In this document: one piece after another, positions 18,738 to 23,036 of the stretch
Layout: each line of letters opens with the position of its first letter
How positions within the stretch are numbered: the stretch's first letter is position 1
Assembly: GCA_000092065.1 (NCBI GenBank)
Contig: CP000583.1
Reading direction: 5' to 3' (one strand)
DNA from: Ostreococcus lucimarinus
Lineage: Eukaryota
DNA length: 64,000 nucleotides
Program-made: the position numbers and the translations under genes
The notes under the pieces: model-generated
The model's database searches: none
Told to the model about the DNA's origin: nothing
Seen by the model: the letters and a program-made list of their open reading frames with translations, nothing else

Positions 18738-19712
18738 ATGGTGGAAGTTATGGGTACTTCGGACGAAGTGTTCGTTCGGAAACTGCGTTCGTTCGCGTCG
18801 CGAACGCACCTCGAACTTCACATCGACGCGGCGATGCGAGGCGAAAACGCGGAGGAGGATTACATCGACGTCTACGCATCGTCTCGCGCCAGACGAGTCG
18901 CACGCCACGCGAAAGCGGCGTCGACGACGCTCGAGAGTCAACGACGCGAAAGGCATTTGCTCCTCGAGGCGGTGACGCAGCAAAAAGAGCTGTTGGATGT
19001 GGAACAGAAACGCGCGGACGACGCGGAGGATGAGCTGGAGAAAGTCACCGCCCAGGCGGACGCGTTGTCGAAGAAATTGGACGATTTGATGTCGACGTTC
19101 ATGTCGAGGAAACTGTTGGAGAGAACGTGCGAGACGCCGACGCCGTCGTCCTCCGTTGCGGCGACCTCGACACTGCAGCTTGAAAACGAGCGCTTGAAAA
19201 GAGAAATGTACGACATGGAGAAACGCCACGCGGCGGAAATTGCTGATCTTCGCGCTGATCTTCGTGCTGATAAGCCGAATGCGCTCACGGCGGAGGAACG
19301 AAGGCGATTGTTGACGGAAATCGCCGAGGCGCGGAAAGAGATTGCAGTCGCGAAAGAAGCGCGCGCGAAGGCGCTTTCGGAAGCCATCGACCTACGTACG
19401 AAATTAGAATCTTTAGGAGCGGCGGCGAGTGTGAACGGTGTGAGTGGCGCGAACAATGCTTTCACACCGGCGGCGAGTGTGAACGGTGTGAGTGGCGCGA
19501 ACAATGCTTCCACACCGCCTAAAACCCCCGAGTGGGCAAACATAGACTGGGACGCGGCGCACGCAGAGATGGATTCCATCAAGGCGGAGAAACAGCGCAT
19601 CACGCCAAAGTTAGATAGTGGGAAACTACCCTCATTAGAAGAAGAAATAGATTGGGAAGCCGCCTACTCGGATATCGACGCGACGCGTGCGCGACGGAAA
19701 ATATTATCATAA
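18738..19712 (+). CDS. Hypothetical coiled-coil protein containing a 16-aa tandem duplication
   Basis: ATG at 18738. Coiled-coil region ELLDVEQKRADDAEDELEKVTAQADALSKKLDDL. Duplicated AASVNGVSGANNA(F/S)TP. Confidence 0.5.
   Translation: MVEVMGTSDEVFVRKLRSFASRTHLELHIDAAMRGENAEEDYIDVYASSRARRVARHAKAASTTLESQRRERHLLLEAVTQQKELLDVEQKRADDAEDELEKVTAQADALSKKLDDLMSTFMSRKLLERTCETPTPSSSVAATSTLQLENERLKREMYDMEKRHAAEIADLRADLRADKPNALTAEERRRLLTEIAEARKEIAVAKEARAKALSEAIDLRTKLESLGAAASVNGVSGANNAFTPAASVNGVSGANNASTPPKTPEWANIDWDAAHAEMDSIKAEKQRITPKLDSGKLPSLEEEIDWEAAYSDIDATRARRKILS
19424..19519 (+). repeat. Near-perfect 48-bp tandem duplication (2 copies, 1 mismatch) inside the coding sequence
   Basis: gcggcgagtgtgaacggtgtgagtggcgcgaacaatgctt(t/c)cacaccg occurs twice, back to back. 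Confidence 0.8.
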
Positions 19713-19724
19713 ATAAATGTGTAT

Positions 19725-20375
19725 CTACTCCATTTCGAGCGTGGTAAAGTACTTAAGCGCGTCGAACTTCTCACCCTTCGCTTCCTTGATCAATCGTTGC
19801 AACTCGCGCGGCTTCTTGATCTGACCTTGAATACCGATTTCGTCGTCTTCGCCCTTCGGCACGACCCAGAGTGGCCACGCGCTCGTGTATCCGGTGCAAA
19901 TCCCGTCTGGCTTGATCACATCTTCGTGCCCTTCGGCGTTTTGGTAGACTCCGTTCGGGAAGCATTCAACGTAATCGATGTACTCCATCGCTTCTTTTCC
20001 CAACAGTTCCTTTTGCTTGTTGCAGTTTTCGCACCAAAACGCCCCGTACAGACGCGCCCCCGCCTCCTTCAACTGCTTCGCGATGGCGATCGCTTCTTCA
20101 CTCGATTCCTTCTGGACAACGTACTTGGTGTACGGTACGGCGACCACTTTCTTGGCCTTTTCTTCTTCATCCGCGATCGCACCGAGCGGCACACCGAACG
20201 CGGACGCGAGTGCGGCGGTAGACAGTCCGAAGAGCGCCGCGCGACGGTCGAGGTGTTCGTCGTTCGCCGACGCCGACGCGCGAGTCGTCGTCGTCACGCG
20301 CGCGCGCGACGTGGAACGACGCGCATTGGTGCGCGCGTTGATCACCGGAACGTTCGAGCGAGCTGGAGCGAACAT
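19725..20375 (-). CDS. Thylakoid-lumen-type thioredoxin-like protein resembling the soluble Trx domain of LTO1 (VKOR-Trx), with no VKOR membrane domain
   Basis: YGAFWCENCNKQKELLGKEAMEYIDYVECFPNG matches the LTO1 Trx domain (YGAFWCSHCQEQKE...YVECFPDG). A transit-peptide-like N-terminus is followed by a twin-arginine signal DRRAALFGLSTAALASAFG. ATG re-anchored to 20375. Confidence 0.6.
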   Translation of the reverse strand: MFAPARSNVPVINARTNARRSTSRARVTTTTRASASANDEHLDRRAALFGLSTAALASAFGVPLGAIADEEEKAKKVVAVPYTKYVVQKESSEEAIAIAKQLKEAGARLYGAFWCENCNKQKELLGKEAMEYIDYVECFPNGVYQNAEGHEDVIKPDGICTGYTSAWPLWVVPKGEDDEIGIQGQIKKPRELQRLIKEAKGEKFDALKYFTTLEME

Positions 20376-20493
20376 GGACGATACGAGGGGCGCGTAAGAG
20401 TGGCGCGAGCGAGCGATCGGTTGTGGATATGTTGGAATCGGCGAGCGGCGGATGGTACAACGAAATGCTCTCTTCACACGAGTCACGGATCTA

Positions 20494-21198
20494 TCACGAT
20501 CCCATTTGCTCCGCTTGGAGCTTGTCTAAAATGCTCTGTACGCGATGCTTCATCACTGGCTGCCCGCGCTTGGTCTTCTTGCGCATGAGTTGCTTTTTGT
20601 CCTGACGCTTGACGCGTTGAGCTTTGAGCTCGGCGTCTCGTGCGGCTTTTTCTTCTAAAAATACTTTCCTCTGCGCCTCACGCTCGGCGCGCTCGACTTG
20701 GCCTTTCTCCCAAGCCTTTTTCAAATAATCAAATTTCTTCTTCTTCCCTTTCACCGTGAGCTGTTCCTCGGGCGCCTCGTCGTCTTCGGCGGCGGCGGCG
20801 CGCGTCTTCGCGTCTTCGTCCAAATCTTCGTCCTCATCGTCCCCTCTCTTCGCCCCTTTCGCCTCTCGGGCGAGGTCTGGGTTATCAATCGCCGCCAATC
20901 GTCGCTCGTACGCCTCTGGATCGAACCCTTCGTCCCGTTCTATCTTCTCCCCGAGCTTCTTTTGCAATCTCTCATACTTTGCCTTTTTCGCCGCCGCCTC
21001 GTCTCGCGACTGTTTGATTCGTGCCCGCTTGTCGTACGTCGACTTGCGGGCGTTGATGAAACGACCGATGGACAGCGCGCTGCGTCCATCGCGCTTCATC
21101 TCCGTCCGTCGCAAGGTTTTGTCCCCGCGTTTCGCATCGCGCGACGTCGACGCTAGAATTTCACCCATGCCCTCCGCGCGTCGCGGAGTGCGGCCCAT
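20494..21198 (-). CDS. Basic Lys/Arg/Glu-rich coiled-coil protein (nucleolar-type, function unassigned)
   Basis: 234 aa, highly charged (KKKKFDYLKKAWEKGQVERAEREAQRK...). An alternative start is at 21168. Confidence 0.4.
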   Translation of the reverse strand: MGRTPRRAEGMGEILASTSRDAKRGDKTLRRTEMKRDGRSALSIGRFINARKSTYDKRARIKQSRDEAAAKKAKYERLQKKLGEKIERDEGFDPEAYERRLAAIDNPDLAREAKGAKRGDDEDEDLDEDAKTRAAAAEDDEAPEEQLTVKGKKKKFDYLKKAWEKGQVERAEREAQRKVFLEEKAARDAELKAQRVKRQDKKQLMRKKTKRGQPVMKHRVQSILDKLQAEQMGS

Positions 21199-21251
21199 TC
21201 GTCGACGCGACTCGTCGCGACGGCGCGCGCGTCGCGAGCGCGGAGGGCGCG

Positions 21252-21989
21252 ATGGAGCTCCCGGCGTCGATAAATAAGTTTATCGAGCGCGCGCGGGGCG
21301 TCGTCGATGGGGCGTCGAACGCGCGCGCGGCGCTGGATGAGCGGATAGATCGAACGAGCTCGGACGCCGCGTTCGCGGTGGCGAAGACGATCGAGACGAC
21401 GAGGGAGCGGGTGAACGATATCACCGATACCGCGGTCGCGCACGCTGAGGCGTTGGCCGAGCACGCGCGGGAGAGCGAGGATGAGTTCTTTAAGATGGCG
21501 AGCAAGCGCGTGGTGGAGACGGTGCGGGAGAACCCAGCGAGCGCGACCGCGGGTGCGCTGACGTTTCTCGCGCTCGCGCTTCCGGGACCGAGAGCGTTGC
21601 TGTGGCGATCGACGCTCGGGAGATTGCAAAGCGAGGAGGCACTCTTCAACGCGTGCGTGCGTAGGAGCGAAACGCTGGCGCTCGACGCTGAAGCGGCGAG
21701 CGGGGAGATTCAGCGCTTGACGGAAGCTGCGAGTGCCGCGGAGGTTGAGATGAAGCGTGGGGCGGCAAATTTGAAATCGGCTGCCCGAGAGCTTCGTGCG
21801 ATGGAGTCGAGGACGTACGGTATGGATAAGAAGGCGACGACACTCTTGAACGACTTGCGCGTCTTGCCGAGCAAGGAGGCGGTGGCGCTCCAAGAACAGG
21901 TGGCCTCGACGGTCGATAAGGTGGCGGCCCATCGCAACGTCGCCCTGTCCACGCTTAAGCGTATTTTCAAGAGCGGTATCGAGGTGTAA
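21252..21989 (+). CDS. Hypothetical protein (Ala/Glu-rich, one hydrophobic segment)
   Basis: 245-aa non-repetitive ORF with an ATG at 21252. The overlapping antisense ORF 21153..22139 is arginine-rich low complexity and judged spurious. Confidence 0.45.
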   Translation: MELPASINKFIERARGVVDGASNARAALDERIDRTSSDAAFAVAKTIETTRERVNDITDTAVAHAEALAEHARESEDEFFKMASKRVVETVRENPASATAGALTFLALALPGPRALLWRSTLGRLQSEEALFNACVRRSETLALDAEAASGEIQRLTEAASAAEVEMKRGAANLKSAARELRAMESRTYGMDKKATTLLNDLRVLPSKEAVALQEQVASTVDKVAAHRNVALSTLKRIFKSGIEV

Positions 21990-22379: not shown

Positions 22380-23036
22380 ATGAGAGCGTCGTGTTCGGCG
22401 TCAGGAGTTCGAGCCCCCAGCGCGTCGACGGCGGCGAAGCGCAAGCACGCTACCCCCTCAGCGAATCGTCGCGATTTCCTCGCTTTCGTCGCTTTTCTTT
22501 CGTCCTCCTCGGCGCCTGCGTCGCGAGCGCAATTCTACAAGCGAAGCTTTCGCGAGCGATTCGAGACGTCCATCTCTTCCGCCACGCACGATTATTCCTT
22601 CGAGTATCCGGAGGATTGGAGCGCGGATATCGTGTCGTTAAATGATGGCAAACTCTACGGCGTCGATACTCGCTATAAGTCGGACACAGGGAACGGTCAG
22701 CTCGCCGTGAGTGTTTTGCCTTTCGTCGGGGCGGACGGTATCAAAGACGCCGGGACGCCGGAGGATGTTTTGCAAAGATTTGAAGAGCTCATCGGTGCCT
22801 ACTGGGAACAAAATGGTTTTGGACAACCAGGACGAACGCCATCGTCAACGTCTGTGTCGACGAAAAACGGTGTCGATTATTATCTATACGAACTCGTGTC
22901 GCCGCACAACTTGATTTCCGCGTGCATCGTCGAAGGTGAACTGTATCTCATGGTCGCCTCTTGCGGCGCTCGGTCTTGGAAGAGCGCCGAAGGCGATCTA
23001 CGATCAATCGTTGATTCGTTCAAGGTGCCACCATAG
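22380..23036 (+). CDS. PsbP-domain (PPD-type) thylakoid lumen protein with a twin-arginine signal
   Basis: Tat motif NRRDFLAFVAFLSSSSAPASRA after a transit-peptide-like N-terminus. PsbP-fold region DYSFEYPEDWSADIV...LYELVSPHNLISACIVEGELYLMVASCGARSWKS. First ATG at 22380. Confidence 0.7.
   Translation: MRASCSASGVRAPSASTAAKRKHATPSANRRDFLAFVAFLSSSSAPASRAQFYKRSFRERFETSISSATHDYSFEYPEDWSADIVSLNDGKLYGVDTRYKSDTGNGQLAVSVLPFVGADGIKDAGTPEDVLQRFEELIGAYWEQNGFGQPGRTPSSTSVSTKNGVDYYLYELVSPHNLISACIVEGELYLMVASCGARSWKSAEGDLRSIVDSFKVPP

Follow-up and report, generated by a model that had tools for sequence, protein, structure and literature searches.

A gene for a stand-alone LTO1-type thioredoxin

We analyzed 64,000 nucleotides (64 kb) of nuclear DNA from the marine picoalga Ostreococcus lucimarinus CCE9901, hereafter referred to as the window, with a focus on a gene on its minus strand whose product corresponds to the thioredoxin (Trx)-like domain of LTO1. 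LTO1 proteins combine such a domain with one of the vitamin K epoxide reductase (VKOR) type; in the protein described here, the domain stands alone behind a presequence with a twin-arginine motif. A preliminary description had read the gene as the detached Trx half of a split lumenal disulfide relay. The gene consists of one unbroken open reading frame (ORF) of 216 codons in a single exon, which runs from the ATG at position 20375 to the stop codon at 19725–19727. Its product is identical to XP_001416915.1 (ABO95208.1, UniRef A4RU86) of O. lucimarinus CCE9901, and the public gene model of XP_001416915.1 comprises the same single exon. The protein is named "Thioredoxin domain-containing protein" in UniRef and "predicted protein" at NCBI. 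The features of the gene are listed below, together with the evidence for each; the lumen signal is assigned to the twin-arginine translocation (Tat) type, and its hydrophobic core is referred to as the h-region.

19725–20375, minus strand: complete coding sequence of the stand-alone LTO1-type thioredoxin-like protein, 216 residues plus stop (ORF and identity to XP_001416915.1)
20262–20375, minus strand: residues 1–38, presumed stromal-targeting part of the presequence, boundary approximate (presumed from composition only)
20175–20261, minus strand: residues 39–67, presumed Tat-type lumen signal with DRR, h-region AALFGLSTAALASAFGVPLG, and A-I-A at residues 65–67 as the putative cleavage site of the thylakoid processing peptidase (conservation among homologs)
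20241–20246, minus strand: codons of the twin arginine, cgt for R44 and cgc for R45 (homolog alignment)
19728–20174, minus strand: residues 68–216, presumed mature protein of 149 residues (alignment and AlphaFold model)
20022–20033, minus strand: active-site CxxC, C115-E-N-C118, within WCENC (both Cys invariant in 46 sequences)
19896–19964, minus strand: second Cys pair, C138 (19962–19964) and C160 (19896–19898), flanking the family-specific insertion GVYQNAEGHEDVIKPDGI (alignment)
19872–19874, minus strand: P168, conserved cis-proline position of the Trx fold; AWPLW here corresponds to GFPTW in LTO1 (alignment)

Domain identity

The similarity to the Trx domain of LTO1 that had been claimed for the protein is supported by sequence and by predicted fold. 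In a phmmer search against the PDB, residues 92–143 matched the Trx-like domain of the VKOR homolog from Synechococcus (3KP8/3KP9; E-values of 9e-11 to 3e-10), and the PDB matches as a whole were limited to this domain (3KP8, 3KP9, 4NV2/5/6; E-values of 9e-11 to 6e-9). In a large protein database, about 54 stand-alone relatives were followed by LTO1 proteins bearing the Pfam VKOR domain, at E-values of 1e-17 to 5e-8. When 46 sequences from stand-alone proteins, eukaryotic LTO1, and cyanobacteria were compared, six residues did not vary, namely C115, C118, C138, C160, P168, and W170. The two motifs pointed out earlier, YGAFWCxxC and YVECFP-N-G, were located as YGAFWCENC at residues 110–118 and YVECFPNG at residues 135–142. 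The protein differs in its active-site dipeptide from all LTO1/VKOR Trx domains examined, with CENC here versus CSHC or CPHC there. This difference is not a peculiarity of O. lucimarinus: when 15 diverse homologs from the stand-alone family were aligned, conservation was complete at E116 and reached at least 90% at N117, and CENC was kept in every aligned or scanned member with this stretch intact, apart from one distant member with CEGC. Conservation of WCENC among orthologs, which the preliminary description had put forward as a check, is therefore confirmed.

An AlphaFold model of the precursor was of mediocre quality (predicted local distance difference test, pLDDT, of 62), with a structure match only to Synechococcus VKOR. 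The model of the presumed mature part, calculated with a 46-sequence alignment, was considerably better (pLDDT of 87.9; predicted template modelling score, pTM, of 0.77). It comprises an N-terminal strand (VVAVPY), a Trx fold of the LTO1 type that carries two insertions specific to the family, and a helix at the C-terminus. In this predicted structure, the CxxC sits where helix 1 starts and a loop with a cis-Pro is present, as is characteristic of the Trx fold. The best fold and sequence matches were VKOR Trx domains, and Foldseek returned TlpA/ResA-like structures only among the weak matches. Scans of the protein against Pfam and NCBIfam identified no significant family; the general thioredoxin family PF00085 gave no match at E ≤ 1, and NCBIfam yielded only sub-threshold glutaredoxin-like matches.

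The VKOR domain itself is missing from the protein, as Pfam VKOR (PF07884) gave no match at E ≤ 1, and the sole hydrophobic segment is the h-region of the presequence. No VKOR was found elsewhere in the 64-kb window either, where tblastn with six full-length LTO1 proteins matched the Trx part only. We also considered a VKOR exon that might join the ORF upstream. This was excluded, since the upstream neighbor is an unrelated gene encoding an rRNA_processing domain and since the window lacks VKOR similarity; only 118 bp lie between the end of the neighboring gene and the ATG, leaving no room for such an exon.

Presequence and predicted targeting to the thylakoid lumen

The first 38 residues contain no acidic, seven basic, and 11 Ser/Thr residues, and this make-up, being typical of a stromal transit peptide, is presumed to reflect one. 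The region before the twin arginine is not conserved at all among the 15 diverse homologs and differs between genera. The twin arginine itself (residues 44–45, followed by AALFGLSTAALASAFGVPLGAIA) is invariant in all 15, and the signal as a whole has the layout D-R-R-AALFGLSTAALASAFGVPLG-A-I-A, followed by DEEE. Complete N-termini were available for 44 of the 54 stand-alone matches, the remaining ten being truncated or frameshifted gene calls. In all 44, the twin arginine precedes the active site by 67–77 residues and is accompanied by a hydrophobic stretch, and a small-x-Ala site is followed by acidic or Gly-Asp residues. Judged by these sequence features, a thylakoid Tat-type signature, i.e., twin arginine, moderate h-region, and A-x-A, is present, and the earlier claim that a presequence with a twin-arginine lumen signature is the only element preceding the domain is supported, the signature being kept in all 44 complete homologs. 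Tat transport and cleavage after A67 would yield a mature protein of 149 residues, with a mass of 16.9 kDa and an isoelectric point of about 5.

The twin arginine might nevertheless be incidental and the protein reside in the stroma, in the endoplasmic reticulum/secretory pathway, or elsewhere, and the fact that prasinophyte presequences are poorly modelled leaves some room for this. We give such a location barely any chance, given that twin arginine, mild h-region, and AxA site keep a fixed spacing in 44 of 44 homologs while the residues in front of them are unconserved, and that every relative of the LTO1-type Trx domain faces either the lumen or the periplasm.

A further question is whether the signal is removed. 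The h-region and transmembrane segment 5 (TM5) of LTO1 lie equally far from the active site (about 47 residues), and homology to LTO1 starts directly after TM5, at the ..PY.. strand. The two segments differ in hydrophobicity, with 19-residue Kyte-Doolittle means of 1.49 ± 0.23 (down to 1.09) for the h-regions of the stand-alone family versus 2.03 ± 0.19 for LTO1 TM5. If the segment stayed uncleaved, the protein would be tethered to the thylakoid membrane, comparable to the LTO1 Trx domain behind TM5 or to the Tat-inserted Rieske protein, an arrangement that fits either redox direction. The collinearity with TM5 points to such a signal anchor, as does the segment of the O. lucimarinus protein, whose Kyte-Doolittle value (1.64 over 19 residues) comes near the usual transmembrane threshold. 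The lower hydrophobicity of the family and the small-x-Ala site with its acidic residues, a cleavage signature found in all complete members, argue in the opposite direction, so that we consider permanent tethering unlikely.

Relationship to LTO1, origin, and range

The relationship between the stand-alone family and LTO1 was examined by means of a neighbor-joining tree (300 bootstraps) computed from Trx domains aligned over 128 columns. In 100% of the bootstraps, the stand-alone family was monophyletic, and a grouping with Mamiellophyceae LTO1 was recovered in 3% of the replicates. Sequence identity was 69% within the family and 28% to cyanobacterial domains, and it amounted to 32–34% for the LTO1 domains of Mamiellophyceae, other chlorophytes, streptophytes, and diatoms alike. 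Two insertions are private to the family, one (GEDDEIGIQ) following the WPLWV strand and the other (VYQNAEGHEDVIKPD) lying between C138 and C160, and the AlphaFold model shows the C-terminal helix as an extra element. Furthermore, the motif GKEAM is retained in the stand-alone family and in LTO1 from outside the Mamiellophyceae, whereas Mamiellophyceae LTO1 carries a shortened GAGA with a 2-residue deletion. We rejected the idea that the Trx domain of Mamiellophyceae LTO1 was duplicated recently, on the basis of the 3% bootstrap value and of GKEAM versus GAGA.

The alignments also revealed two characteristics of Mamiellophyceae LTO1 as such. The deletion changes FGKEAMxxF to FGAGAxI, and the fused proteins (P0380, P0148, P0386, P0390, and P0366; loci L044–L120) possess a conserved C-terminal tail past the Trx domain, which reads ..NDAASM[IV]A[DE][LM]F or ..AASQLDxFLG and is absent from the other LTO1s aligned.

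As far as alignment and tree allow such a reading, the stand-alone gene is an old or fast-evolving divergent paralog and not LTO1's own Trx domain cut loose. It likely originated from a partial duplication of LTO1, comprising TM5 and the Trx domain, in or before the ancestor of the Mamiellophyceae, followed by fast divergence. In the simplest reading, TM5 would have become the h-region of a cleavable twin-arginine signal, because the segment is collinear with TM5 and homology begins right after it. The known range of the gene comprises the Mamiellophyceae and one more distant lineage (P0053; 46% identity), which has WCEGC and the signal TRRAFLALV...ARA. Transcripts from Mantoniella in MMETSP demonstrate that the gene is transcribed in a relative. 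No copy was found on the viral contigs of IMG/VR, and the only prokaryotic match to the family came from one bacterial metagenome-assembled genome (MAG).

Full-length LTO1 in Mamiellophyceae

In a split LTO1, VKOR and Trx would be encoded by separate genes, and the stand-alone protein would be the only Trx partner of a VKOR-only protein. The distribution of fused genes contradicts this proposal. A search with an algal LTO1 (P0366), chosen for its resemblance to short VKOR matches, retrieved a large marine clade of proteins of 350–460 residues, and all inspected members were fused, combining a VKOR CxxC with a Trx domain carrying WCSHC. One fused-LTO1 cluster includes a protein from Mantoniella antarctica (UniRef A0A7S0ST50; 439 residues; "Vitamin K epoxide reductase domain-containing protein"), the only organism name among the names of these clusters; the stand-alone family, for its part, includes a transcript from Mantoniella beaufortii (MMETSP). 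A scan of JGI metagenomes revealed 475 related loci, and the ten representatives that were translated are intact single-exon fused genes. Loci of both kinds fall into three classes of G+C (GC) content, at about 44–47%, 56–63%, and 63–69% for fused LTO1 and about 45–46%, 55–57%, and 72% for the stand-alone gene, which is what would be expected for Bathycoccus-, Ostreococcus-, and Micromonas/Mantoniella-like genomes. The metagenomic samples returned by contig look-ups for fused LTO1 did not overlap those of the stand-alone gene, the exception being JGI sample Ga0257114, which holds an Ostreococcus-like fused LTO1 as well as a 76-kb contig bearing the stand-alone gene of the O. lucimarinus type. 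In addition, a sentence in Wu et al. 2021 (PMC8195503) refers to an alignment of LTO1 that includes O. lucimarinus.

A VKOR-only gene, which the preliminary description had suggested looking for in the rest of the genome, was searched for with a VKOR-only profile against all 1.84 billion representatives; the 6353 matches included no convincing VKOR-only algal protein. Several short matches that look VKOR-only seem to be fragments or garbled gene calls. The most promising candidate, on a 440-kb contig (P0290/L009), was inspected at the DNA level and rejected as a VKOR-only gene: it is a fused LTO1 whose reading frame is disrupted by frameshifts of a polished long-read assembly. More generally, we observed that frameshifts in polished long-read metagenomes (L009/P0290, L027/P0047, and P0049) result in truncated "VKOR-only" and garbled stand-alone Trx calls, and such artefacts could pass for split LTO1 genes.

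In favor of a split enzyme, VKOR is absent from the protein and the window, no protein named as O. lucimarinus LTO1 appeared in the match lists or inspected clusters, and the alignment including O. lucimarinus is described, in the statement by Wu et al. (PMC8195503), as having only "partially conserved" VKOR cysteines. Against it stand dozens of intact fused genes on Mamiellophyceae-like contigs in three GC classes, with one named Mantoniella antarctica; the VKOR-only profile search and its lack of a convincing algal match; the 3% bootstrap value, according to which the stand-alone domain and the Trx domain of Mamiellophyceae LTO1 are not sisters; and an active-site dipeptide that differs from LTO1. 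We therefore give the split enzyme no more than a slim chance and drop the idea of a split relay, as the GC classes of picoalgal contigs that carry the stand-alone gene also contain fused VKOR-Trx genes. The statement that the domain has no VKOR partner is true of the protein and of the 64-kb window, but not of the Mamiellophyceae at large, where LTO1 is intact and fused. We infer that a fused LTO1 exists alongside the stand-alone gene in O. lucimarinus itself, and the best reading of the stand-alone Trx is that of an addition to LTO1 instead of half of a split enzyme.

Proposed function

The best explanation as a whole, to which we assign about an even chance, is that the gene encodes a nuclear-encoded, additional, and probably soluble thiol-disulfide oxidoreductase of the thylakoid lumen with a divergent WCENC active site. 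The N-terminal transit peptide would import the precursor into the chloroplast, and the twin-arginine signal, going by its conserved features, would carry the folded protein across the thylakoid membrane via Tat. Cleavage after A-I-A67 would then set free a product of about 17 kDa that is soluble and acidic. With the fold and catalytic residues that we observed, its WCENC dithiol may swap disulfides with lumenal proteins, i.e., the protein would take part in lumenal thiol-disulfide exchange. The weakest step concerns the direction of this exchange. Our preferred version is a diffusible DsbA-like carrier that LTO1 would re-oxidize in trans through its VKOR/quinone module, and a free carrier of this kind would extend the reach of the membrane-bound enzyme.

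The role of an oxidant is suggested by the ancestry of the protein in the LTO1 module and by a bacterial counterpart. The bacterial MAG WY5.bin123 (JAKALJ010000008.1, locus L032:2869–3897) encodes a membrane-anchored VKOR-type Trx of 155 residues with an identical WCENC, whose best PDB match is 3KP9 (E-value of 7e-16). Its gene lies 10 bp upstream of a gene of the DsbB family (PF02600; E-value of 9e-11). In this case, the partner of a detached VKOR-type Trx apparently is DsbB and not VKOR, and by analogy the locus may serve as a precedent for a detached Trx module that works with a membrane oxidase. Horizontal transfer of the algal gene from a WCENC-bearing bacterium was also considered and was rejected, as identity over the domain amounts to only 24% and the insertions are missing from the bacterial protein.

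Alternatively, the protein could act as a lumenal reductant or isomerase that receives electrons via the CcdA-HCF164/CCS5 route and reduces or reshuffles lumenal disulfides, for instance in cytochrome maturation, for a peroxiredoxin, or in the regulation of VDE or STN7. HCF164 and Bacillus ResA are reductases in oxidizing compartments, and ResA has an acidic residue after the first Cys of its active site (CEPC). The same pattern is found in HCF164 (WCEVC; PMC9813791), and WCENC follows it, in place of the WCSHC/WCPHC of LTO1/VKOR. The long branch and the two insertions would fit a functional shift away from LTO1, and a soluble reductant would fill a gap, as the lumenal catalysts covered in PMC3842002 (LTO1 and CCS5/HCF164) are membrane-bound. 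According to the same review, photosynthetic eukaryotes have neither DsbA nor DsbB. However, the motif argument comes down to two residues, the fold is not of the TlpA/ResA/HCF164 type, the protein descends from an oxidizing LTO1 module, and the lone bacterial protein with the identical WCENC adjoins a DsbB-type oxidase. We regard a reductant as possible but doubtful, and slightly favor the oxidant role. In both cases, a Trx-fold protein free in the lumen would be a novel component.

Several points weigh against our explanation of an additional, soluble, and preferentially oxidizing lumenal protein. The evidence for fused LTO1 is at the level of the class and the genus, plus one sentence in a paper. 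In the O. lucimarinus protein, the Kyte-Doolittle value of the hydrophobic segment (1.64) is on the border of what a membrane anchor requires, so that the protein may be tethered. The E-N dipeptide is unlike CSHC/CPHC, and the resemblance of WCExC to HCF164 (WCEVC; PMC9813791) favors a reductant. Finally, the DsbB-linked bacterial case represents a single locus whose protein, at 24% identity, bears no particular relationship to the algal family. In its most far-reaching form, the proposal is that of a first soluble, Tat-exported disulfide carrier of the lumen, either a free DsbA-like shuttle recycled by the VKOR module of LTO1 or a long-sought soluble thioredoxin that reduces lumenal targets, in which TM5 would have turned into a cleavable twin-arginine signal; we put this forward tentatively, with the chances somewhat against it.

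Neighboring genes

Downstream of the Trx gene, a convergent gene is located at 18738–19712 on the plus strand, and only 12 bp separate the two stop codons. With stops this close (19712 and 19725), the 3′ ends of the two genes must overlap or share a terminator region. The convergent gene contains a 48-bp tandem repeat at 19420–19517 (two copies, 98% matching), which duplicates 16 residues (AAASVNGVSGANNA[F/S]TP) in a coiled-coil-like protein. The base composition of the window is uneven, with a GC fraction of 0.476–0.659 per 2-kb window. The mean of 0.564 falls below the roughly 60% GC usually quoted for the O. lucimarinus genome.

The preliminary description had also drawn attention to a second lumen-type gene close by. 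The ORF in question (22380–23036, plus strand) does encode a PsbP-domain protein (PF01789; E-value of 7.5e-15) with a twin-arginine motif, NRRDFLAF, and the sequence NRRDFLAFVAFLSSSSAPASRA, but its proximity to the Trx gene appears to carry little meaning. Two unrelated genes, for an rRNA_processing-domain protein and for RHIP1, separate the two. The O. lucimarinus genome holds roughly 7,600 genes, with some 80–100 lumenal proteins, so that another lumenal gene no more than three genes away can be expected in several percent of cases; in so dense a genome, chance would produce about this proximity. The gene order RHIP1, rRNA_processing, Trx, and convergent gene (18738–21989) is kept in a Bathycoccus-like genome with 45–46% GC (L030 and L031), and no PsbP gene was found within 6 kb of the Trx gene on the Bathycoccus-like contig. 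The two lumen-type genes are thus real, their proximity is probably due to chance, and a functional link between Trx and PsbP is unsupported, as the adjacency is not conserved.

Significance and comparison with known systems

The domain type as such is known. Not described in the literature that we searched are the detached Trx, the twin-arginine presequence in place of TM5, the WCENC active site, and the coexistence with a full-length LTO1; searches with the accession numbers, and with VKOR or vitamin K epoxide reductase in combination with Ostreococcus or Micromonas, returned no literature on the stand-alone protein. The known thiol catalysts of the lumen are all bound to the membrane; SOQ1 is one more of them, besides LTO1 and HCF164/CCS5. 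The soluble lumenal proteins concerned include PsbO, VDE, and FKBP13. If our explanation is true, a free lumenal Trx-fold protein changes the picture of how disulfides are delivered to, or reduced in, such soluble proteins. This would apply at least to Ostreococcus, Micromonas, and Bathycoccus, which are ecologically dominant marine picoalgae, and Ostreococcus tauri is genetically tractable. Moreover, the gene would provide a clean example of a membrane helix that became a cleavable Tat signal after partial gene duplication.

Among the known systems, LTO1/AtVKOR (At4g35760) belongs to the same Trx-like subfamily. It shares 32–34% identity, the four Cys, the cis-Pro, and the YGAFWC...YVECFP motif with the stand-alone protein, and the lumen is the expected compartment of both. 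The stand-alone protein differs by the lack of a VKOR domain and of membrane helices, with a twin-arginine signal replacing TM5, by WCENC instead of WCSHC, by the insertions after YVECFPxG and WPLWV, and by the C-terminal helix. Its gene is also restricted to the Mamiellophyceae and one other lineage, where it coexists with LTO1. The Trx domain of Synechococcus VKOR (3KP8, 3KP9, and 4NV2/5/6), the best PDB sequence match, is fused to VKOR via a membrane helix, has CPHC, and lacks both the insertions and the C-terminal helix. HCF164/CCS5 is likewise a lumen-facing Trx-fold protein with a WCExC site (WCEVC in HCF164). In contrast to the stand-alone protein, HCF164 is membrane-anchored, of the TlpA/ResA type, and supplied with electrons from CcdA, and no sequence or specific fold relationship is detectable between the two. 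The WCENC protein of the bacterial MAG, although paired with a DsbB-family gene, has an N-terminal anchor, no insertions, and no specific relationship to the algal family.

DsbA, with its inserted helical domain and CPHC, differs in structure from the stand-alone protein, which has neither. In DsbA/DsbB, and in bacteria such as Mycobacterium, where VKOR has a DsbA-like protein as a separate partner, a free carrier is recycled by a quinone-linked oxidase. The logic proposed here for the stand-alone protein would be the same, with the difference that LTO1 already carries a tethered Trx domain of its own.

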